Below are positions 2,625-58,955 of a stretch of 64,000 bases of DNA, in pieces. Each line of letters starts with the position of its first letter. The stretch's first letter is position 1. The DNA lies in contig CAZHIA010000005.1 in assembly GCA_964532425.1 (NCBI GenBank), forward strand, positions 66,772 through 130,771, given 5' to 3'. The position numbers and the translations under genes were made by a program. The notes beneath the pieces were generated by a model. The model was not told where the DNA came from, searched no databases, and saw nothing but the letters and a program-made list of their open reading frames with translations. The DNA comes from an uncultured Candidatus Saccharibacteria bacterium. Lineage in GTDB: Bacteria; Patescibacteriota; Doudnabacteria; UBA920.

Positions 2625-4691
<2,067 letters not shown>

Positions 4692-6243: not shown

Positions 6244-6699
6244 TCAATTTTGTTCAATCATCCCCGGCTCAAACTGGTTCCCCGGCTTGGTATCTGGTTT
6301 GAGTATCATTATCCCCTTCCCTGGCTCGCTGGAGAGTCCAAGCTCGAAGGCCGCGCAGATCATACCTTGGCTTTCCACACCGCGGATCTTGGCTTTCTCA
6401 AGGACAAACGGCTCATGGGCCTCGCTATGGATGTTCTGCGGGATCTGGGCACCGGGCAGGGCCAGGGCCACCATGTCTCCGACTTCAAAGTTAAAGGCGC
6501 CACAGACAACCGGGTATATTTCTTTTTCACCATCCGTCAATTGAACGACCTGCAGCCGGTCGGCATTGGGATGCTTTTCTATAGCTAAAACTCGGGCTGT
6601 AATAATGCCAGAGTAGTTATTTGTTGGGTTTTTAGCCGGTGTGTTTTTGAATAGTCTTTGAAAAAATGAAAATAATTCCATAAAATTGATAATTAACAA
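6244..6699 (-). CDS. stand-alone tRNA-binding (Myf / EMAP / PheT N-terminal-like) domain protein
   Basis: GIITARVLAIEKHPNADRLQVVQLTDGEKEIYPVVCGAFNFEVGDMVALALPGAQIP...KIRGVESQGMICAAFELGL matches the N-terminal tRNA-binding domain of PheT and CsaA/Trbp111. The rest of pheT is not at this locus. Confidence 0.75.
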   Translation of the reverse strand: MLIINFMELFSFFQRLFKNTPAKNPTNNYSGIITARVLAIEKHPNADRLQVVQLTDGEKEIYPVVCGAFNFEVGDMVALALPGAQIPQNIHSEAHEPFVLEKAKIRGVESQGMICAAFELGLSSEPGKGIMILKPDTKPGNQFEPGMIEQN

Positions 6700-6833
6700 A
6701 TTTACAAATTAAATACTCTGTATTTGCTCCTCGGCTCGGATGTTGATTGTATTCAACATCTCTCGCCTTACGTCGCAAATAAAACTTACTGCGGCCCAAT
6801 TTGTTAATTTGTAAATTATTAAATTTGTTAATA
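6689..6833. repeat. Nested inverted repeats in the intergenic region.
   Basis: Outer arms ttaacaaatttacaaattaa (6692-6711) and ttaatttgtaaatt (6808-6821). Inner hairpin gatgttga-ttgtat-tcaacatc at about 6737-6760. Confidence 0.4.
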
Positions 6834-8396
6834 GTACCTGCATTCTTCCTGGTTGCACAGGTAGCCGGTGTAGCCGGTCGGGGCAGCGCTCAGCAAGGTC
6901 TTGAGGGTAAACGTATCAAAAGTGGCAGAAACTTTGTACTCATAATCGACACCGGAAAGAGGATCTTTCGGTATGGCAGAAATGTACTGAGGCACTAAGT
7001 CAGTCTTATACTTTTGTTCCGTAGGAAATACATATTCCTGATCGCCGGCAATATTATTGTTGCTGTACAGCAGAAGTGCCGTACGAATGCTCTCCATGTC
7101 AGATTTGCGCTGGTCGTCGTACATAGCAGCCTCAGTCTCTGTCTTATACCGTATGCCGTCCGAAGCTTTGAGCTTGATCAGCTGGTTTTGAGTCTCGCTG
7201 TAGAAAGTGAGGACATAATCCGTACCGTCATCGTTCGGCGTGTAGGTATACACGAATTCATTCTTGTTTATCGGGTCAACGGGATTCATAGCTACCCTCA
7301 GATATGGTTTTATAGACGAGACCATTTCGCTAAAATTCGTCGTCTTTGGGTATGTATCAAGGTCCTTCTTGTAATTCGTAAGGGCAATTGCAATGTTTTT
7401 CATGGTGGTCGTACGCTGTGCGTCACGATCTTGTTTTGCTTCCGGAGAACCGTCTGCAGCAGCTGATGAAGCGGAGTTTGTCGTCTCCGGGGTCGTGGAA
7501 GGAACAGCAGGAACTGTTGTACTGGTGGAAGTCGCTGGAGTGGCAGGGGTGAATTTATAGGTGGTTATTAAGACCTCACCCAGCGCGGTTATGGTCGGCT
7601 GGTGAAGATTAAACTGCTTCATCTTGGCCGTTATGGTATCAATCTCGGCCTGGGTCATGGCATTGCCCGTTTGCAAGCTATAACCGCCCTTGATAAAGTC
7701 GGAATCGGAATATTTTGGGTCTCCGGCAGAGTGACTATTGAGCGGATCGCTCATAAAGACATGAAATTCGTCGCCATCAGCAAGGCCATCCTGGTCTGAG
7801 TCCGGATTATTTGGATCGGTCTTCATTTTAAATTCTTCCTGATTGCTCAACCCGTCACGGTCCGCATCGGCATCCGGCCCGCACTGGTTCGGGCTTTGGC
7901 AGTTGTCTGTGTTGAAATATTTCACCAGCCAGTCTTTCCATTCCTGGGTATTTTCCACGGAAGAAGGTTCAGTTGAGCTGGCCTGGCCCTGGTCGTTCCC
8001 TGGTTGCTCCTTATTTGGTTTGGGTGCATTCTCATTCAAAACAATATCGCTTTTTGAAAGCGATACTACAAATTTTTCATAGATAAAATAGCCGGCAGCA
8101 CCTGCAACCGCCAAAATGACAATTATGATAATCCCCCATTTCATGTATTTATTCATTGGTCCGCGTGGTGCCTGCGCCGCCGGCGGTTCTTGCTCGATTT
8201 TTACCACCGGACTGACAACATCCCCGGTCTTTTTTTGGCGAGGCATGACATTATAAAACAAATACTCCGGTTCGGCGGATGCTTGAATTTTCTGTTCCTG
8301 ATCAGGCTGTGTCGGCTGTTGATCCGGTTTATCTGCGGGTTTGACGGGTTGAAGGTTAGGATTCTGGGTATCCATATGAATAAGCGAACTCGGCAC
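6828..8396 (-). CDS. membrane-anchored extracellular protein with thrombospondin type-3-like Ca-binding repeats and two GspG-like pseudopilin globular domains
   Basis: One N-terminal TM (WGIIIIVILAVAGAAGYFIY). DxDxDG repeats (DADADRDGLSNQEEF, DPNNPDSDQDGLADGDEF). Two copies of the RxxD[IM]xxIxxALxxY...Y[PF] motif (RDAQRTTTMKNIAIALTNYKKDLDTYP, RKSDMESIRTALLLYSNNN) typical of GspG/pseudopilin cores. T/P/S-rich linker. Confidence 0.65.
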   Translation of the reverse strand: MPSSLIHMDTQNPNLQPVKPADKPDQQPTQPDQEQKIQASAEPEYLFYNVMPRQKKTGDVVSPVVKIEQEPPAAQAPRGPMNKYMKWGIIIIVILAVAGAAGYFIYEKFVVSLSKSDIVLNENAPKPNKEQPGNDQGQASSTEPSSVENTQEWKDWLVKYFNTDNCQSPNQCGPDADADRDGLSNQEEFKMKTDPNNPDSDQDGLADGDEFHVFMSDPLNSHSAGDPKYSDSDFIKGGYSLQTGNAMTQAEIDTITAKMKQFNLHQPTITALGEVLITTYKFTPATPATSTSTTVPAVPSTTPETTNSASSAAADGSPEAKQDRDAQRTTTMKNIAIALTNYKKDLDTYPKTTNFSEMVSSIKPYLRVAMNPVDPINKNEFVYTYTPNDDGTDYVLTFYSETQNQLIKLKASDGIRYKTETEAAMYDDQRKSDMESIRTALLLYSNNNIAGDQEYVFPTEQKYKTDLVPQYISAIPKDPLSGVDYEYKVSATFDTFTLKTLLSAAPTGYTGYLCNQEECRYY

Positions 8397-8859: not shown

Positions 8860-11800
8860 TCATTCCAGATACTCAAATTCGCACCGGTGGTCCCTGGCTT
8901 TCTTATGCTCTTCCTTGAACAGGTCGTACTTTGTCGTATATGCGATCCGTTCAACAAGCTCCAAGAGCCGCTGTTTGAGATCGGTAATCTCTTTTTCCGG
9001 CGCGATCTCCTCTTCAATGAACGTATTATCTTGCAAGTACCAGTACTTCAAGCCGACGACGGTTTCTTTCAAGTATTCCTCGGCCGCCCATTGGTAAATA
9101 TAGAGCTGGTCTAAGTCCTTGCTCTTTTTCGGCGTCTGTCCGGTCTTGTAATCCAGGAGAATAATACCGTTTTGCACGCTGTCGGCACGGTCGATTTTAC
9201 CGGTAAATAGATACTCTCCCAGCTTCAGCTGGAAGAACTTCTCGATATATTTTGGCACGAATTTCGCCTGCAGGCTGGTCTCATAGAATGTGCCGAGCAT
9301 TTTCCTACCAAGCACGCGATATTCCTCTTTTTGTTCTTTTGTATCGTACCAGTCATCCACCCAATGCTTTTCATATAGTTCTTCCAGGAATTTCGCCGGG
9401 GGCAGCACCACCTCCGGTTTGCCGCCGAACAAGTCCTGCTGCGGCAGGTCGAGATTGGTTTTGTATAGTTTTAAATACTCTTCGAAAACTTTATGGATGG
9501 TCTGGCCGAAGCTTAAATGGCAGCTGCCGGCTACCGGTAGTTTGAGGTAATGATGATATTTGTATTTGAGCGGACAAGTTTCAAAATCGTTCAGCTGGGA
9601 ATAAGAATACTTGAGCGACGGCACATATATCTGCTTCCCCGGTTGCGCTGCGGGGCGGAACATGACTTTGCCGGTAGCCTGATTTACCCGGTCGCTGGGC
9701 ACCAAGCCGGTCTCGACCAAAAAGCTTGACGGCTTCTTGGCCCGGCTGCCGCCATAGTCCTTGGCCCAGGTCAAATAGAGATAGGTCTTGGCCCGCGTCA
9801 TGGCAACATAAAACAGCCGGCGTTCTTCCTGCAAATGGAAATCCCCTTCCGGAAGGATATCTTTGATCAGGGCTTCCGGAATCTCGATCGGATCGCTTTT
9901 TTCCCGCGTCGGAAACCGCTGGTCTACCATGCTGATGACAAAGACATAGTTGAATTCCAGGCCTTTGGAGCTGTGAACAGTCATGACTTTAACGCTTTCA
10001 GGACCAGCATTCGGATCGAATTTTATTTCACCTTCATTGCCGGCTTCCAGCTCCAAGTCCAGGGTGGCCAAAAAATTATGCATGCTTCGGTCAGTTTCTT
10101 CCTGCCCGAATTCTTCGATCTTTTTGTAGAATTGGTCTACCAGCTCGCGGTTTTCGGCGTTTTCCAGCGTGTCTTCGGAAATAACCTCTTCGATACCAAT
10201 ATCCTTCACAATACTCACGAACAGCTCAGCTGCATGTATGCGCCGGGCAGCATCGCTATGGGCATGGAGGCAATTAATAAGCCGTTCGATGCTTTTTCGC
10301 GACTCATCGCTGGTTTCCGGGAAGCTTTTCGCGTCTTTTAACGCTTCATAGAGCGTTAAGGCCTTTTTATGCCCGTGGGCTAGAATATGAGCGCGCTCGT
10401 CATGGGGAATGAAAAACTTCGGCAGCGTTAGAACGCGGTAAAGGCTGTGCGAATCATGAAAATTATCGAGCAAGCGGAGATAGGACAGTATATCAACAAT
10501 GATCTGTTTTTTGTATAAACCGCGATTAGCCACGAACGTGTACGGTATATTGCGGCTGCCCAGGACGGGCAGCAGCTCGTCAGCTGATGCGTTTCGCCTG
10601 AGCAGAATAGCAAAATCATTCCAGCTGCAGGAGGGTTCTGAATTCTTCAACTCCATAATCTTATTGGCTACGCAATTCAGTTCCGAACTTAAATCTTGCG
10701 CCTCCAGGACCTCGATAACTCCTTCCTGGGGGATGTTTGCGTGGAGTTTTTTTGACAAGTCTAACTTGGTCTCCAGCCGGTCCGGATTGTTTTTTTGGAT
10801 GAAATCATACGCCAGATCAAGGATATTTTGGCTGCTGCGATAATTTTCGACCAGCGTGATCTCAGACAGTTCCGGGAAATCCTCTTTCAGCTTCAAGATA
10901 TTGGAAACGCTCGCGCCGCGGAATTTGTAAATGGACTGGTCATCGTCGCCAACTACGGTCAAGTTTTGGCGCACCCCAGCCAGCAACTTCACCAATTCGT
11001 ACTGGGCATAGTTCGTATCTTGAAATTCATCGACAAGGATATATTTGAACTTATCCTGATAATATTTGAGAATCTTCGGCCGCTTTTTGAATAATGCCAG
11101 CGTGTAGTTGATAAGGTCGGCAAAATCCAAATAATTGTGGTCGATGAGTAATTTTTGGTAGGTGTGGTACGCACCAGCCAGCTCTTCAATGCGGGCGATC
11201 TCCACAGGATCAACGTCAACCGGCGTCATCCTGACGTTGAGTGCATCCGAAACGGAAGGATCTTTTTTGCTGACCCGAGATTCTTCGCCACTCGGATGCA
11301 CTCGCGACTCAGAATGACGCCTTTTGGAAGGAGGATTGATTTTTGTCTGAGCAGGCTGATCTGTTTGCAATCTAAGACCTTCGGCAAAACTCAAATAGTC
11401 TTCTGGCCCTATAAGTTCGTCCTTGCAGCGGCTGAAGTGAGAGAGCATCGCGTCGATGAACTTGGCAGGATTGCCCAGCGGCCGGTAATAGCTCAATTTA
11501 AATTTAGACAGGTTTTTGTAAACCAGGATCCATTGTCTGGTTGAGTCGAGGAGCGTGAAATCGTTGGGAATGCCGATGTCGAGGGCATGCATTTTTAAAA
11601 TACGCTCGCAAAAACCGTGGAAGGTCGCGATCCATGTGTCGTACGCCCCGATGGGCAACAGCAAGTCCACGCGCTCCTGCATCTCACCGGCCGCTTTTTC
11701 GGTAAACGTTAGGGCGGCTATTTCATCCGGCCGGGCAGCGCCGGTTTCCAGCAAATAGGCTATGCGCCGCGTAATAACGGTTGTTTTTCCGGTGCCTGCT

Positions 11801-11975: not shown

Positions 11976-12437
11976 TCAGTGCTTCCCGTTACTGATAAAA
12001 CTCGTCCACTGCTTCCAGAGGTCCTCGCCTTCATCTTTAAAGGAGGACCAGAAAGCCGAAGGGTTGACTATCTTGACCCCTTGAAATTCTTCCAGTTTTA
12101 GCAGGGCATTATCGCTGCTCACCAGAAAGTCCGCCCGTGCTTCCACCGCGCTTTCGAGGATCTTATTGTCTTCGGGATCCTCGACAATGCGAATCTGGCG
12201 GCGATTGACCACCCAGTGGATCTTGGCAAACAGATCATCCAGCTGGTGGCGGTAATCATCATTGTCGATGAGCTGGGAAGCTATAAGTTTATTCTCCTGC
12301 AGGGTCTGGCGATTCGCGTAGGCCTCTATCTCTCCTGCCAGCACCGCATCGATGATCTTCTTTTCGTATGAGTAGTCGTCTTTAAAGCCGTTAATGAGAA
12401 CGTTGGTATCCAGGACTATCTTGGTAACATTTGACAT
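11976..12437 (-). CDS. PIN-domain protein (VapC-like putative ribonuclease)
   Basis: IVLDTNVLINGF ... DPEDNKILESAVEARADFLVSSD gives the PIN acidic residue pattern. The start codon lies inside a heptamer repeat block (MSNV = atg tca aat gtt). Confidence 0.8.
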   Translation of the reverse strand: MSNVTKIVLDTNVLINGFKDDYSYEKKIIDAVLAGEIEAYANRQTLQENKLIASQLIDNDDYRHQLDDLFAKIHWVVNRRQIRIVEDPEDNKILESAVEARADFLVSSDNALLKLEEFQGVKIVNPSAFWSSFKDEGEDLWKQWTSFISNGKH

Positions 12438-12457
12438 GTGACATTTGACCTTTGACC
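12426..12457. repeat. Heptamer repeat block (tttgaca, tgtgaca, tttgacc, tttgacc), left flank of the 4HB gene.
   Basis: 7-nt periodic TTTGAC units between the 4HB stop and the PIN start. Confidence 0.6.
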
Positions 12458-12465
12458 GCTTCCGA

Positions 12466-12852
12466 TTACTTCGTAGGGTTTTTTAATAGTACATCTCTAA
12501 ACGCAGTGAGTTGATCAGCAAGGTTTGCTCCTCTACTTAAAAATTCCTTGTGTTCTTCTTCATTAATATAATGATTATCTAAAGCGATATCTAAACAAGC
12601 AATAACTTCATTCAAAGAGGTATGCGATCTATTAAGAAATAGGGCGAAATCCTTATCGGTCCCTCTGTCGGATCCTTCTGCTATGTTAAGCAAAATCGAA
12701 TCCGCTGCGCGATACAGTTGGTTTGTTAAACTAAACAGTTCATATTGAGGAAAGTGGATCCTTGCTAGCTGTTTGACATCTATGACATATTTTCGGGCAT
12801 CCTGATAAACCGGAAAATTTCTAAATCGGAATTTTTTATCAGTGTTTCCCAT
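12466..12852 (-). CDS. four-helix-bundle protein (TIGR02436 / formerly 23S rRNA intervening-sequence protein family)
   Basis: FPVYQDARKYVIDV ... LTNQLYRAADSILLNIAEGS ... SLNEVIACLDIAL are family hallmarks. Confidence 0.8.
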   Translation of the reverse strand: MGNTDKKFRFRNFPVYQDARKYVIDVKQLARIHFPQYELFSLTNQLYRAADSILLNIAEGSDRGTDKDFALFLNRSHTSLNEVIACLDIALDNHYINEEEHKEFLSRGANLADQLTAFRDVLLKNPTK

Positions 12853-12885
12853 GTCAAATGTTAAAGGTTAATGGTCAAATGTTAT
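12853..12885. repeat. Heptamer repeat block in the opposite orientation (gtcaaat, gttaaag, gttaatg, gtcaaat), right flank of the 4HB gene.
   Basis: It abuts the 4HB ATG (aacatttgacATG on the coding strand). There is no SD. Confidence 0.6.
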
Positions 12886-24306: not shown

Positions 24307-24312
24307 ATTCTG

Positions 24313-24400
24313 GACATTTAACATTTGACCATTGACCTTTGACAAATCATTGTCATTTTTGATTCTAAAATGGTCACATGTTACCTGTTAAAGGTCAAAT
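24313..24400. repeat. Heptamer (TTTGAC / TTTAAC / ATTGAC) repeat blocks in inverted arrangement in the atpD-atpC spacer.
   Basis: Left half in one orientation and right half in the other, giving a composite imperfect palindrome. Confidence 0.6.
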
Positions 24401-24401
24401 G

Positions 24402-25799
<1,398 letters not shown>

Positions 25800-30046: not shown

Positions 30047-30117
30047 GTCAACATTTGACACCTGACTTTTGACATTTGACCGAAAGGCCACATGTCAATG
30101 GTCAAAGGTTAAATGTT
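30047..30117. repeat. Heptamer TTTGAC-family composite palindrome in the atpB-atpE spacer.
   Basis: catttgac, ttttgac, atttgac on the left. gtcaatg, gtcaaag, ttaaatg on the right. Confidence 0.6.
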
Positions 30118-42380: not shown

Positions 42381-44219
42381 TTATTTCTTTAAAACAGCCA
42401 AGAACGCTTCCTGCGGAATATCAACTTTACCGATTTTCTTCATTTTTTTCTTGCCGCGCTTCTGCTTGTTGAGAAGCTTCATCTTGCGGGTCACGTCGCC
42501 GCCGTAGAGGTAGCCGGTCACGTCCTTGCGCAGGGCAGAAATAGTCTCGCGCGCAATAACCTTGCCGCCGATAGCTGCCTGGATTGCGATCTCAAATTGG
42601 TGGCGCGGAATGAGCTGCTTGAGCTTTTCCACCAGTTCTTTACCATCAGTTTGGGCAACTGAGCGGTGCATGATGGCAGCGAGAGCCGGAACCGGCTCTC
42701 CTGCTACAAGGATGTCGACTTTGACCAAATCCCCTACCCGCTCTTCAATAAAATCATAATTCAGAGATGCATATCCGGAAGAAACCGACTTCAGTTTGTC
42801 GTAAAAATCCAGAATAATATTGGCCAGCGGCATCTCGAACATCATATCTACGCGCGTGTTGCCAATGTATTTGATATCTTTGGAAATAGCCCGGCGCTGG
42901 TTGGAAATTTCCATGATGGGACCGATATAATCCGTCGGCGTCAGGATATTGACTGACATCCACGGTTCATAGATCTCCTTGATGGTTGCGGGATCGGGAA
43001 ACTCCGCAGGGTTATGAATATAGAATTCCTCGCCGTTGGTTTTGACCACGCGGTAGGCTACGGAAGGTGCGGTCAGCACTAAATCCAGGTTATACTCGCG
43101 CATCAGGCGTTCCTGCACAATATCCATGTGCAAGAGGCCCAAAAACCCGGTCCGGAAACCGAAGCCAATGGACGGAATGTTGATCGGCTCGAATTCCAAA
43201 GCCGCATCGGATAGCTTGAGCTTTTCCATGGCATCGCGCAGCAGCGGGTAATCGTCTCCCGAGACTGGGAAAATGGTCGCATAGACCATGGGCTTAATTT
43301 GCTTGTACCCGGGCAGCTGGGTGACCTGCGATTTACCGGCGGAAAGCGTAACCGTATCTCCGACACGCGCCTTACTGACATCCCGCAAGCCGGTCACAAT
43401 GTACCCGACCTCACCCGTTTTAATCTCGTCCGACTTTTCCATTTTAGGATGGAAATAACCAACCTCAAGACTTTCCGCTTCGGTTTGAGAACCGATCATA
43501 AAGATCTTTTCGCGGTTTTTGAGGCTGCCATCCATGGCGCGGACAAACACAATAACTCCGCGATGAATGTCGTACATGGAATCGAAGATGAGGCCGCGGA
43601 ACGGTCTTTGCGGATCGCCTTTCGGCTGGGGTACGCGCTCGATAACTGCCTTTAAAATTTCCTCCACCCCTTCCCCGGTCTTGCCGGATGCATACAAAAT
43701 TTCGTCATCAGTAAACCCGAACGCGCTCTTTAACTCCTCAGCTGTCTTTTTGCGATCGGAGTTTGGCAGGTCAATCTTGTTTACGACCGGAATCAGTACA
43801 AGGTCATGTTCGAGCGCCAGGTAGACGTTAGCCAGGGTCTGGGCTTCTATGCCTTGGGTAGAGTCCACAACCAAAATCGCCCCCTCGCAGCACGCCAGCG
43901 AACGGGAAACTTCATAGGTAAAGTCCACATGACCCGGGGTATCAATTAAGTTCAAAGTGAAAAGTTCAAAGTTAGAAGTTTCTTCTCCGTCAATTTTTAA
44001 CTTTTCACTTTGAACTTTGAATGTATATTCCATCCTCACCGGCTGCAGTTTGATGGTAATGCCGCGTTCGCGTTCCAGATCCATTTGGTCCAGCAGCTGG
44101 TCTTTCATCTCCCGCTTGCTCACCGTATGTGTCACTTCCAAAAGCCGGTCAGCCAGTGTGGACTTGCCGTGATCGATATGCGCGATGATGCAGAAATTTC
44201 GTATGTGTGACTGGTCCAT
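42381..44219 (-). CDS. lepA: elongation factor 4 (LepA)
   Basis: NFCIIAHIDHGKSTLADRLL, DTPGHVDF and the LepA C-terminal domain. Contains an in-frame roughly 20-aa insertion encoded by a palindromic repeat. Confidence 0.95.
   Translation of the reverse strand: MDQSHIRNFCIIAHIDHGKSTLADRLLEVTHTVSKREMKDQLLDQMDLERERGITIKLQPVRMEYTFKVQSEKLKIDGEETSNFELFTLNLIDTPGHVDFTYEVSRSLACCEGAILVVDSTQGIEAQTLANVYLALEHDLVLIPVVNKIDLPNSDRKKTAEELKSAFGFTDDEILYASGKTGEGVEEILKAVIERVPQPKGDPQRPFRGLIFDSMYDIHRGVIVFVRAMDGSLKNREKIFMIGSQTEAESLEVGYFHPKMEKSDEIKTGEVGYIVTGLRDVSKARVGDTVTLSAGKSQVTQLPGYKQIKPMVYATIFPVSGDDYPLLRDAMEKLKLSDAALEFEPINIPSIGFGFRTGFLGLLHMDIVQERLMREYNLDLVLTAPSVAYRVVKTNGEEFYIHNPAEFPDPATIKEIYEPWMSVNILTPTDYIGPIMEISNQRRAISKDIKYIGNTRVDMMFEMPLANIILDFYDKLKSVSSGYASLNYDFIEERVGDLVKVDILVAGEPVPALAAIMHRSVAQTDGKELVEKLKQLIPRHQFEIAIQAAIGGKVIARETISALRKDVTGYLYGGDVTRKMKLLNKQKRGKKKMKKIGKVDIPQEAFLAVLKK
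43971..44041. repeat. 71-nt imperfect palindrome (ttcaaagtgaaaagttcaaagtt ... aacttttcactttgaactttgaa) inside lepA.
   Basis: Arms are reverse-complementary. In frame, it encodes FKVQSEKLKIDGEETSNFELFTL just before the G3 motif DTPGH. Confidence 0.55.
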
Positions 44220-48068: not shown

Positions 48069-48150
48069 ACATTTAACCTTTAACCATTAACATGTAACAA
48101 ATCCGCATTGTCCGAGTGTCTAGGTCAAATGTCAAATGTCACATGTCAAA
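48069..48150. repeat. Heptamer TTTAAC/TTTGAC-family composite palindrome between the DUF4012 gene and ftsW.
   Basis: catttaac, ctttaac, cattaac on the left. gtcaaat, gtcaaat, gtcacat, gtcaaat on the right. Confidence 0.6.
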
Positions 48151-48155
48151 TGTTT

Positions 48156-49317: not shown

Positions 49318-50727
49318 TCAGGAACGCGATAAATTCTTTACTAGTTCTTTAAAGCGTTCTCCCCTGTCTTTGTAATTTTTAAACATGCCGAAACTTGCGC
49401 ATGCGGGCGACAGCAGTACAACATCACCTGCTGTAGCAACAGAACGGGCTTGCCCGAGAATTTCTTCCATGGATGCAGCACCGGTCAGTACTTGCCCGTT
49501 AAATCCTCTTCCTTGTCCAAGCACTTCCCTGATCCGTTCAGCTTCCTGCCCTATGAGAATAACAGCTTTGATATTATGCGCCGAACGAATGACCTGTCCG
49601 AGCTCGGTAAAGTCGCTATGTTTGGTTGACCCCCCTAAAATAATAATCTCTGGTTCAGTAAAAGCTTTTATAGCGGCAATGGCTGTCTCAGGAACTGTAG
49701 AAAAAGAATCATTGTAGTATGCAACGCCTTCGTGGGCGCCAACCGGCTCAAGCCGATGTTCCAGCCCGGCAAAACTCTTAAGGACATCAGCCACCGCTTC
49801 CGGTTCGATGTCTAAGGCACCCGCTGCCGCGACCGCTGCGCAGACGTTCTCAAGATTATGACGCCCCTTCAGCTTAAGTTCATTGCATGGAAAGGAAAAA
49901 ATCCGTGGGAAGATTCCGACTGCGACCATTTGGTCCTGTTCGATAAAGCATCCCTCCCGCAGCTGTTCATGCGTGCTCACAGAAAGTTTCTTGTGAGCCT
50001 GCCCCATTTCACCAATGAGCCTGGTGGCGGGGTAGTCGATATTATAAATGGAAACATCTTCTCGCTTTTGATAGACCGTAAGCGAGCTTTTGGCAGCATG
50101 GTATTCGCGAATATGCCTATGTTGATCAAGATGCTCCTGGGTGACCATGAGACAAACCGCGATGTGAGGGCTTTTGTGCAGATCCTGAAGCTGGAAACTA
50201 GAAAGCTCGAATACCACTATATCGCGCTCCGTCATGTCATCCAAAAATTCGAACGGCTGGATCTTGCCGATGTTGCCGGTCAGGAACATTTGACCTTTGA
50301 CATTTGACCATTGACCATTCAACTTCAACATTTCATAAATAAGAGTGCTGGTGGTTCCCTTGCCTTTCGTGCCGGTCACTCCGACAATCTTACCCGGGCA
50401 GTGGTCAAAGAACCATTTGGTCTGGCTCGTGATTTTCAACCCCTTGTGTTCGGCCGCTAACAGATCAGGGTGCAGCCGCCATAGTCCCGGACTACGGAAG
50501 GCCGCGTGAAAGCCGGTAAGTTCTTTCAGACAGTCCGGACCGAAGATAAAATTGAGGTTGAGCGCTTTTATTTTTTCTTGTTCTTCCGGCGCCCATTGTT
50601 CCCACGGGCGCTGGTCAAAAAGCACGGGGGTAATGCCGTGCTTGAGCAAATATTCGGTAACAGCCTGCCCTTCGCGTCCAAAACCCAATACCGCGGTGAG
50701 TTTTTGATCCAAATCTTTGAGTTCCAT
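49318..50727 (-). CDS. murD: UDP-N-acetylmuramoyl-L-alanine--D-glutamate ligase
   Basis: Start at the ATG at 50727 (MELKDLDQKLTAVLGFGREGQAV). GVTGTKGKGTT is the Mur ligase P-loop. The track ORF extends further upstream through an overlap. Confidence 0.85.
   Translation of the reverse strand: MELKDLDQKLTAVLGFGREGQAVTEYLLKHGITPVLFDQRPWEQWAPEEQEKIKALNLNFIFGPDCLKELTGFHAAFRSPGLWRLHPDLLAAEHKGLKITSQTKWFFDHCPGKIVGVTGTKGKGTTSTLIYEMLKLNGQWSNVKGQMFLTGNIGKIQPFEFLDDMTERDIVVFELSSFQLQDLHKSPHIAVCLMVTQEHLDQHRHIREYHAAKSSLTVYQKREDVSIYNIDYPATRLIGEMGQAHKKLSVSTHEQLREGCFIEQDQMVAVGIFPRIFSFPCNELKLKGRHNLENVCAAVAAAGALDIEPEAVADVLKSFAGLEHRLEPVGAHEGVAYYNDSFSTVPETAIAAIKAFTEPEIIILGGSTKHSDFTELGQVIRSAHNIKAVILIGQEAERIREVLGQGRGFNGQVLTGAASMEEILGQARSVATAGDVVLLSPACASFGMFKNYKDRGERFKELVKNLSRS
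50286..50325. repeat. Heptamer TTTGAC block inside murD.
   Basis: On the coding strand tggtcaa atgtcaa aggtcaa is 21 nt. It adds WSNVKGQ between the conserved EMLK..G and GNIG. Confidence 0.6.
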
Positions 50728-50806: not shown

Positions 50807-51613
50807 CTAGGCCGGCGTAATTTCGTACCGCGGTCCATGGCTGCCAATGCACCGCTCGCCGCCAAGACCTTCAAAAAGCAAGGCCCAGCCTCCGCACTGC
50901 GGATCAAAGGCGAATGTCTCCCGGGCACCGGTCGGTTTTCCTGCTTCGTCTGTTCTTTCGATCGTAAGCTCGGACCGCAAATCGGATACAACCTGGACCG
51001 TATCGATGACAAGACCGCCTTCCTTGATCTGAACTTTTGCCCCTGGTTCAAACAACACCCGGCCTGACCGATCACGTTTAGCCACGTATCCTGCGGTTGC
51101 GGTGCCAGTTTCGTTGCTGGCACAATCGAACTCGCACTTGCCAAACGGAATAGTAGGCGGGATGTTCAATTTGCACACAGCAGTCGCGAGCGCACTTAAG
51201 GCAATAAAACCGATCTTCGGCTGTTTTGACGCTTGGTCAGCAAGAGCCATAGGCAACCGGAAGACTTCTTTCAGATCAGCGGTGTTCTCCAAGGCTGACC
51301 CAAGCCCACAACTTTCTTCCAGCCAGTCCCCCTCGGGGCCATCGATCACCACCGGATACACGTATGTGAGTACGTCTTCATGGTCTATATGACCTTTGTG
51401 AAAAACGTGCCAGGGCGTGAAGTATGAAAAGTCCGTCCCGCGGCAGATTTGGGACAGAATGACATCCCAATCCCACTGCTTCGGATCCGTGTCCAAGCCT
51501 TCCGGCCAAAAGACACTTTCTCCGTCTTGATGATTGTCCAGCACGACGACTCTCGAGAGTTCCGCCCCTTGTTCAGTTACTTTGCGTACGACTCCAACTG
51601 GTACGATGAACAT
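50807..51613 (-). CDS. hypothetical protein (268 aa, acidic)
   Basis: Strong SD gaggagga. No family recognised. Confidence 0.55.
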   Translation of the reverse strand: MFIVPVGVVRKVTEQGAELSRVVVLDNHQDGESVFWPEGLDTDPKQWDWDVILSQICRGTDFSYFTPWHVFHKGHIDHEDVLTYVYPVVIDGPEGDWLEESCGLGSALENTADLKEVFRLPMALADQASKQPKIGFIALSALATAVCKLNIPPTIPFGKCEFDCASNETGTATAGYVAKRDRSGRVLFEPGAKVQIKEGGLVIDTVQVVSDLRSELTIERTDEAGKPTGARETFAFDPQCGGWALLFEGLGGERCIGSHGPRYEITPA

Positions 51614-58892: not shown

Positions 58893-58955
58893 AACATTTG
58901 ACATTTGACTTTCTGCGACCCAAGTCAAAGGTTAATGGTCAAACGTCAAATGTTG
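58893..58955. repeat. Heptamer TTTGAC-family composite palindrome between the TM protein and the ATPase gene.
   Basis: acatttgacatttgact ... gtcaaaggttaatggtcaaacgtcaaatgtt. Confidence 0.6.

Follow-up and report, generated by a model that had tools for sequence, protein, structure and literature searches.

The murD gene considered here lies in a 64-kb window of contig CAZHIA010000005.1 (the window being the whole stretch of DNA analysed, 64,000 nucleotides), whose host organism is a member of Candidatus Doudnabacteria, of the Patescibacteria or Candidate Phyla Radiation (CPR). The murD product carries Mur ligase Pfam domains, corresponds exactly to the protein P0001, has its nearest relatives among proteins annotated as Candidatus Doudnabacteria MurD, and matches solved MurD structures at E=7e-52. 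A 608-aa open reading frame (ORF) of the ORF list, reaching 51144, is an upstream over-extension of the same gene. Embedded in frame in murD is a short tandem array of heptamers, and this array is one solo copy of a dispersed element of ~32 nt, AACA(TTTGACN)4, of which the window holds 12 copies, here called arms (Table 1).

At the site of the array the coding strand of murD reads AAG TTG AAT GGT CAA TGG TCA AAT GTC AAA GGT CAA ATG TTC CTG ACC GGC AAC ATC GGC, which encodes K L N G Q W S N V K G Q M F L T G N I G. Tandem Repeats Finder (TRF) places 4.0 copies of a 7-nt period at 50289-50316, with 85% matches, and the array contains four TTGAC cores, all of them perfect. A preliminary description of this DNA had proposed that exactly three heptamers were inserted in murD. 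The in-frame repeat is real, but both TRF and the alignment of the 12 arms give four full units (tggtcaa tggtcaa atgtcaa aggtcaa) plus a conserved terminal ATGTT, the complete arm being GGTCAAT GGTCAAA TGTCAAA GGTCAAA TGTT when read on the coding strand.

That the array is an accident of assembly or a chance similarity is scarcely credible. The source is a metagenome-assembled genome and mis-assembly is possible at short repeats, but two different runs, SRR11567520 and SRR11567528, yielded Logan contigs that match the window, its array among the rest, at 100% identity across 5017 and 3443 nt. Because these two independent assemblies are identical, an artefact is rejected. They are the two assemblies available, both of the same population, and neither variation in array length nor other heterogeneity is found between them; the preliminary description had named heterogeneity in reads that is not a multiple of 7 as a sign of artefact. 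The frame of murD is moreover intact, the protein models well, and orthologs from many studies carry the same feature. As for chance, the three-unit pattern TTGACNNTTGACNNTTGAC (<=2 mismatches) has 20 matches in the window where 0.13 are expected, and zero arrays of >=3 units appeared in 50 shuffles.

The periodicity in murD is a property of the DNA and not of the peptide. In the DNA for the segment NGQWSNVKGQM, 22 of 26 positions match at a lag of 7, as against 13.3 +/- 2.3 in synonymous recodings (P~1e-4; 20,000 recodings with the window's own codon usage, among which the highest value reached 22). The array has rare codons as well, for example TCA for serine (11% of Ser codons). Selection at the level of the peptide as the source of the periodicity is rejected by this null together with the unit changes seen in all three frames in orthologs, which are described below.

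The 12 arms of the window align without any gap, with the consensus AACATTTGACnTTTGACCTTTGACATTTGACC and a common terminus, AACATTT, and all 18 window occurrences of ACATTT[GA]AC fall within heptamer arrays. Ten of the arms are placed in the spacers between genes or extend over a start or stop codon, the other two lie inside coding sequences (murD and gyrB), and most are inverted pairs that form intergenic hairpins. Arm termini contribute directly to the reading of neighbouring genes: they supply the stop codons of the NYN and atpD-like genes (the TAA of gaTAACATTTGAC / TAACATTTGAC) and the start of the PIN gene, the ATG in GTCAAATGTT (GTCAAATGtt), such that the PIN protein begins MSNV. The 12-arm alignment reveals neither a conserved target nor a target duplication in the arm flanks, no transposase is encoded among the 10 window ORFs scanned, and Rfam at gathering thresholds recognizes four tRNAs only in the window, and no rRNA. 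A simple reading of the TTGACA arrays as sigma-70 -35 boxes was set aside, as their orientation and spacing to genes do not fit.

The second solo copy, in gyrB, falls in a linker for which solved GyrB structures offer no aligned counterpart (between query residues 103 and 153 of the C-terminal fragment). The terminal coding-strand 12-mer GTCAAATGTTCC is identical in the murD and gyrB copies, and in both MurD and GyrB the element encodes the recurrent peptide SNVKGQ. The murD arm has no pairing partner and no predicted structure (RNA fold z = -0.2), on which grounds a hairpin or terminator role for this copy is rejected; a promoter and terminator scan around murD finds nothing at the array. A terminator-like hairpin (50792-50773), accompanied by promoter-like sites, lies just upstream of the murD start.

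A variant heptamer hairpin is found in frame in lepA, where it adds ~15 aa between switch I and DTPGH and forms a 19-bp perfect stem (z = -6.3). A would-be CTT TGA unit of this hairpin reads CTT TTC, and the partner arm has the complementary change. Orthologs of lepA, including those of L083, L085, L086 and L094, have 42-46 aa versus 27-31 aa at the same place, with units of their own, and the LepA loop carries lineage-own heptamer inserts in five lineages. The earlier suggestion that the heptamer spreads or expands regardless of coding context is supported by the family as a whole: some members make up hairpins between genes, some fall on the start or stop of a gene, one is in frame in gyrB, and lepA has a variant.

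Table 1. Heptamer arrays and associated features of the window and of murD loci in other Doudnabacteria-like lineages (window coordinates unless a locus is named).
Feature	Position	Strand	Remarks
murD coding sequence	49318..50727	-	469 aa, start MELKDL; UDP-N-acetylmuramoyl-L-alanine--D-glutamate ligase; from ORF list
21 nt named as insertion in the preliminary description	50290..50310	-	TGGTCAAATGTCAAAGGTCAA; TGG TCA AAT GTC AAA GGT CAA = WSNVKGQ; 3 of 4 units
Solo arm of 32-nt heptamer element in murD	50285..50316	+	AACATTTGACC TTTGACA TTTGACC ATTGACC; ~G138-F148
Second solo copy, in frame in gyrB (ORF 2625-4688, -)	2916..2948	+	coding-strand terminus GTCAAATGTTCC
Intervening-sequence-like unit	12425..12884	-	inverted 32-nt arms 12425-12456 and 12853-12884 around 128-aa ORF 12466-12852
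Inverted arm pair, atpD-like/atpC-like spacer	24311..24405		atpD stop TAA within arm terminus; RNA fold z = -2.5
Intergenic hairpin, two four-unit arms	30051..30116		-28.8 kcal/mol, z = -5.1; 0/200 shuffles as stable
Variant heptamer hairpin in frame in lepA (ORF 42381-44219, -)	43948..44021		units TTCAAAG / CTTTGAA; TRF
Hairpin occupying entire ftsW-DUF4012 spacer	48069..48153		TTAAC-variant arm and TTGAC arm; RNA fold z = -2.3
Intergenic hairpin, short arm and four-unit arm	58894..58953		-28.2 kcal/mol, z = -5.1
Codon-supplying arm termini	12437, 12882, 24402		PIN, NYN, atpD-like genes
MurD loop ~83-95 arrays	L083 10249-10281; L089 517-542; L093 1134-1159		
MurD loop ~266-283 arrays	L084 10401-10432; L088 6825-6857; L090 6837-6872; L091 4556-4593; L092 905-942; L144 3462-3495		
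Window-site loop, L083			unit TCGAATT
Window-site loop, L084, L092			units TCAAATG / TCAAATT
Window-site loop, L085			unit TCAAATC
Window-site loop, L086, L172			unit TTAAATC
Window-site loop, L168			decayed copy of window's units

One inverted pair of arms encloses a gene. The 128-aa ORF between these arms is a member of the S23p / 23S-rRNA-IVP family (PF05635, E=1.3e-26); the arms are 78% complementary over 32 nt with 396 nt between them, and in the minimum free energy fold of a 481-nt transcript (z = -2.6) the terminal units pair and so close the element. The unit sits between the genes of NYN-domain and PIN-domain proteins and not in 23S rRNA. In the 2.2 Mb of fetched loci two further S23p homologues, both distant, were recognized, of which that of L139 is bracketed by a 17-nt inverted repeat and not by a clear heptamer array. 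The closest parallel is the Coxiella burnetii intervening sequence (IVS) that encodes S23p: it comprises 428 nt, is closed by a 28-bp terminal inverted-repeat stem that is cut by RNase III, and has three to four tandem GACAGAT heptamers before the S23p start, in a number that varies among strains (PMC4990558). Similarly, the S23p ORF of the window lies within ~32-nt terminal inverted repeats that close a ~460-nt stem-loop, and its arms consist of four heptamers (28 nt plus the terminus) with the unit GACATTT / GACCTTT. Unlike the S23p IVSs, which occupy helix 25 or 45 of 23S rRNA genes, the window element is located between protein-coding genes, and most of its copies are ORF-less hairpins or solo arms; the murD copy, in particular, is a single arm in a coding sequence, with neither ORF nor partner arm.

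Within MurD the insert occupies the loop that joins the helix after the ATP-binding P-loop to the GNIG beta-strand. The best solved relative, 3lk7, aligns over the whole protein and has a 6-residue gap exactly at the insert (aggqr----g--llagnig vs lngqwsnvkgqmfltgnig). An AlphaFold2 model built with 40 orthologs (mean predicted local distance difference test score, or pLDDT, 90.7; ~86 locally) places a helix at residues 123-141, a loop at 142-146 and a strand at 147-151, so that the insert is predicted to lengthen the post-P-loop helix by about one turn and to add a short loop. From the model and the 3lk7 alignment we infer that the site is a permissive surface position.

Comparison with other MurD proteins draws on 164 murD loci with DNA, among the matches listed; a profile scan of contigs gave mostly loci from outside Doudnabacteria, and these serve as the 30-aa baseline. 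A GTKGKGTT-to-GNIG span of 30 aa is found in ~85% of the 164 loci, some Doudnabacteria included, as against 36 aa in the window. The 119 Doudnabacteria-like orthologs have spans of 28 to 70 aa, and the distribution peaks at 30 (18 proteins), 34 (17), 36 (34) and 37 aa (11). Strain-level comparison is impossible because the nearest other MurD is only 59% identical, and gains and losses of the insert cannot be counted on a neighbour-joining tree of 120 MurDs because that tree is too star-like (~55% identity throughout).

The orthologs carry arrays of their own at this loop. Wherever DNA was fetched for 36-aa forms with an array-like loop peptide, the loop DNA is always period-7 and in the window's codon register, with units that are specific to the lineage (Table 1); three other 36-aa loci (L118, L119 and L152) show no period-7 signal. 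The preliminary description had called for an ortholog alignment, in which the same residues might have been encoded by non-repeat sequence; the similar residues of the orthologs (QISNVKCQ, KISNLKSK, RISNFEFQ) come instead from repeat DNA. In L083 an A-to-G change in all units shows up as CGA, TCG and GAA in the three frames, which is a concerted change at the DNA level. By a peptide-only test, 33 of the 119 orthologs have a loop 8-mer <=1 mismatch from the translation of a heptamer array, versus 5 of 325 control windows, and at least 28% of the 119 encode heptamer arrays in the loop. Arrays are found in other length classes as well, at 34 aa with AGCTAAA and at 47-48 aa with TTCCCAA, TTTTCAA or CAAGAAA, and the units CAGTATC, CGCACCT and CTACAAG occupy the same loop in still other lineages. 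Decayed arrays are seen in L168, L001, L087 and L088, and these fit a passenger whose sequence is not constrained. Close relatives may have wholly different loops: 30 vs 49 aa at 86% protein identity, and an array versus a palindrome at 84%.

Other sequences are also found at this loop. In L173 a small palindrome, GCCGATGAATCGGC, replaces the array that is present in the 84%-identical relative. Longer loop inserts occur in P0043, P0050, P0057, P0064 and P0112 and in P0047 and P0053, and their peptides (…SLR…PRNDT…, …PIYR…LINQ..T…) presumably look like the translation of GC-rich palindromic repeats that are read through.

How large the insertion is depends on the reference that is chosen. It had been put at 21 nt, or 7 aa. 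This is exact in comparison with L167, which has a 29-aa span and no array, and it is 6 aa (18 nt) with respect to the canonical spacing of 30 aa. L167 and the array-bearing L092 (36 aa) have matching flanks, ATA TTA AAG TTG CAA ... CAA ACx TAy CTz ACC, and the difference between them amounts to exactly seven codons; removal from the window of the 21 nt listed in Table 1 leaves KLNGQMFLT, again a 29-aa spacing and near the KLQGQTYLT of L167. A three-unit step of 21 nt, in one direction or the other, is thus seen in this pair of loci. The stronger proposal, that insertions are selected for multiples of three units, finds support in this one ortholog step and does not hold as a rule, since arrays occur in classes of +4, +5, +6, +7, +17 and +18 aa, and a loop of +19 aa is also known. 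Out-of-frame alleles are not seen in the 164 murD loci listed.

Arrays in MurD cluster at three loops, at residues ~83-95, 133-150 and 266-283. At the first of these, L083 and L089 share with the window the unit AGGTCAA / TTGACNN, and GTCAGATGTT forms the end of the L083 copy. The array there replaces sequence and is not a mere addition, because the array-bearing forms are shorter than the array-less orthologs. At the loop near residues 266-283, where the window's own MurD has no array, the units are CTTCCGA, AATTTCC, TCTTCAA, ACTTACA and GATTAAA. In 20 murD genes there are 17 arrays of period 7 and zero of period 6 or 8-15, though those periods include some (6, 9 and 12) that are easier to keep in frame. 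The exclusivity of period 7 and the recurrence of the same loops argue for a process that acts on DNA and is specific for heptamers.

The murD repeat is probably a solo arm of the dispersed element that has been fixed as a passenger in a permissive loop, after filtering by selection for frame and for a stop-free orientation. The arrays would arise and turn over through DNA-level events, by unit slippage, by copying from other arrays, or by both. Because murD is essential, only those alleles that keep the frame would survive, for instance those that differ by the 21-nt, three-unit step. Survival would be restricted further to alleles in the stop-free orientation because the TTGACNN sense, read as TTG ACN NTT GAC NNT TGA, meets a stop every three units and the GTCAAA sense is open in all frames. 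The peptide WSNVKGQ would then be carried along and tolerated, itself serving no function.

Several observations weigh against this explanation. The wide differences in unit between lineages at the same loop fit generation in situ better than they fit one spreading element. In 12 Doudnabacteria-like loci picked by similarity alone there are 11 period-7 arrays in ~17 kb of murD versus 3 in ~103 kb of flanks (17 versus 6 when loci picked by loop peptide are added), and a purely neutral passenger model is uneasy because the flanks of the other genomes are nearly array-free. The gain over the canonical 30 aa is not a multiple of 7 nt, and a history in which three units were inserted therefore requires either that the ancestor had 29 aa or that a further event of 3 nt took place. 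With no strain closer than 59% identity in MurD, the age and direction of the event cannot be read, and the exposure of the loop at the surface is deduced from the model and the alignment.

Some of these same observations favour an account in which the array was produced locally, through heptamer-specific slippage from a chance seed in the loop, with no link of descent to the intergenic copies and with the likeness between them due to a shared mutational and coding filter. The presence of many unrelated units at the same loop in orthologs would be expected on this account, as would arrays at two further MurD loops in other lineages and the lack of matching arrays in the flanks of those loci; the array-less L167 reads GGC CAA ACT at the site, a near-unit and possible seed, and heptamers are reported to be the over-represented class of long simple repeats in prokaryotes, for which slippage has been proposed (PMC4679880; PMC4692102). 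Independent origin by slippage is nevertheless unlikely. The murD copy has its four-unit length, its unit variants and its terminus, AACATTTGAC, in common with 11 other arms, its last 12 nt recur in the gyrB copy, and a defined end of this kind is not expected from independent slippage.

It may also be supposed that murD retains the array for a function that the array performs there. In RNA or DNA it might bind a protein, signal processing or pausing, or recruit ribosomes internally (AAAGG being followed by ATG); in the protein it might be an adaptive loop. Such a function is quite improbable, even though arrays of period 7 only are concentrated at three recurrent MurD loops across lineages, AAAGGTCAAATG on the coding strand resembles a Shine-Dalgarno motif and has an in-frame ATG after it, genuine start and stop codons are overlapped by arms elsewhere, and the lepA hairpin has a compensatory pair of unit changes. 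The sequence of the unit is not conserved between lineages and has decayed in several, the insert is absent from some orthologs (the 18 of 119 at the canonical 30 aa), and unrelated palindromic inserts are found at the same site in others. The murD arm, furthermore, has neither partner nor predicted structure, and an internal start would give a MurD that lacks the P-loop.

A broader proposal builds on the passenger explanation and is offered tentatively, as it is considered doubtful: that Doudnabacteria have an active, heptamer-specific repeat system, in which IVS-like arms of S23p/IVP type outside rRNA repeatedly colonise and rewrite permissive loops (three in MurD, one in LepA, and the GyrB linker), with three-unit turnover keeping the frame.

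Families of heptameric repeats are known from other bacteria and include the STRR of cyanobacteria, TAACTGA of Beggiatoaceae (PMC4679880) and GGGAATC / GGGGA(C/T)T of Xanthomonas and Nostoc (PMC4692102). They are mostly intergenic, with about four units preferred (PMC4692102) and few copies in ORFs (PMC4679880), and for the Beggiatoaceae repeats the argument from a stop-free orientation has already been made (PMC4679880). The window element is like these families in its 7-nt unit, in its many dispersed copies, which lie mostly between co-directional genes near start and stop codons, in its arms of about four units, and in the occurrence of in-ORF copies only in the stop-free orientation. It is unlike them in its unit, TTGACNN, and its CPR host, in that its copies have a defined terminus and are usually inverted pairs, in that copies within ORFs are inside essential enzymes (MurD, GyrB, LepA) and not at protein ends or in hypothetical ORFs, and in the occupation of the same protein loop throughout a class of organisms.

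Two other kinds of repeat invite comparison. Rickettsia palindromic elements (RPE) and other elements of the miniature inverted-repeat transposable element (MITE) type are selfish repeats fused in frame to host genes (reviewed in PMC10969869). The window repeat is similar to RPE in being in frame in unrelated housekeeping genes, with a recurrent peptide and at places that the fold appears to tolerate. RPE are palindromes of ~100-150 bp, however, and the murD insert is a 32-nt tandem arm and that of lepA a 74-nt hairpin; neither a target-site duplication in the arm flanks nor a transposase among the 10 ORFs scanned was identified, and orthologs show turnover of units in place. In contingency loci, likewise, a tandem unit that is not a multiple of three lies within a coding sequence, and slippage by one unit would shift the frame. 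Unlike such loci, murD is an essential, single-copy, core cell-wall enzyme gene with a short array of four units, no length variation is seen in the two assemblies, and the comparative data contain in-frame states only.

The searchable literature holds no paper that joins heptanucleotide tandem repeats with the CPR. Beyond the precedents found there are the CPR host, the copies in the interior of essential enzymes, the recurrence of arrays with lineage-specific units at the same loop across a class, and an S23p ORF that lies outside rRNA with heptamer arms on either side. Selection is expected to clear essential genes of repeats whose unit length is not divisible by three, and here one is fixed in murD. 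The pattern points to a heptamer-specific DNA process strong enough to be visible even where only one event in three can survive, and loops of this kind would be natural recorders of that process. Through the arm-flanked S23p ORF, the dispersed heptamer hairpins are linked with the intervening sequences of rRNA. On the practical side, such inserts inflate the apparent divergence of proteins and can produce spurious starts, stops and ORFs in the annotation of CPR genomes. Were it true that a protein of the S23p family spreads or processes the arms, a widespread protein family would gain its first functional handle, and selfish DNA would have a new route by which to shape protein loops in reduced genomes.

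Some further features of the murD neighbourhood and of similar arrays may be recorded. Between murD and an amidohydrolase gene of the window lies a 268-aa ORF (50807-51613, minus strand) that has no Pfam match and is absent from the syntenic loci L083-L086. In L170, which is closely related to P0022, murD is flanked by amidohydrolase and FtsW genes that are each called as two shorter ORFs (6408-8001 and 9602-10721); this may reflect frameshifts or gene decay. Perfect TTGACAT arrays of 4 to 10 units are present in ten viral or giant-virus contigs (L174-L183), in several cases just upstream of a ribosome-binding site, and these appear to be unrelated to the mixed-unit arms of the window.

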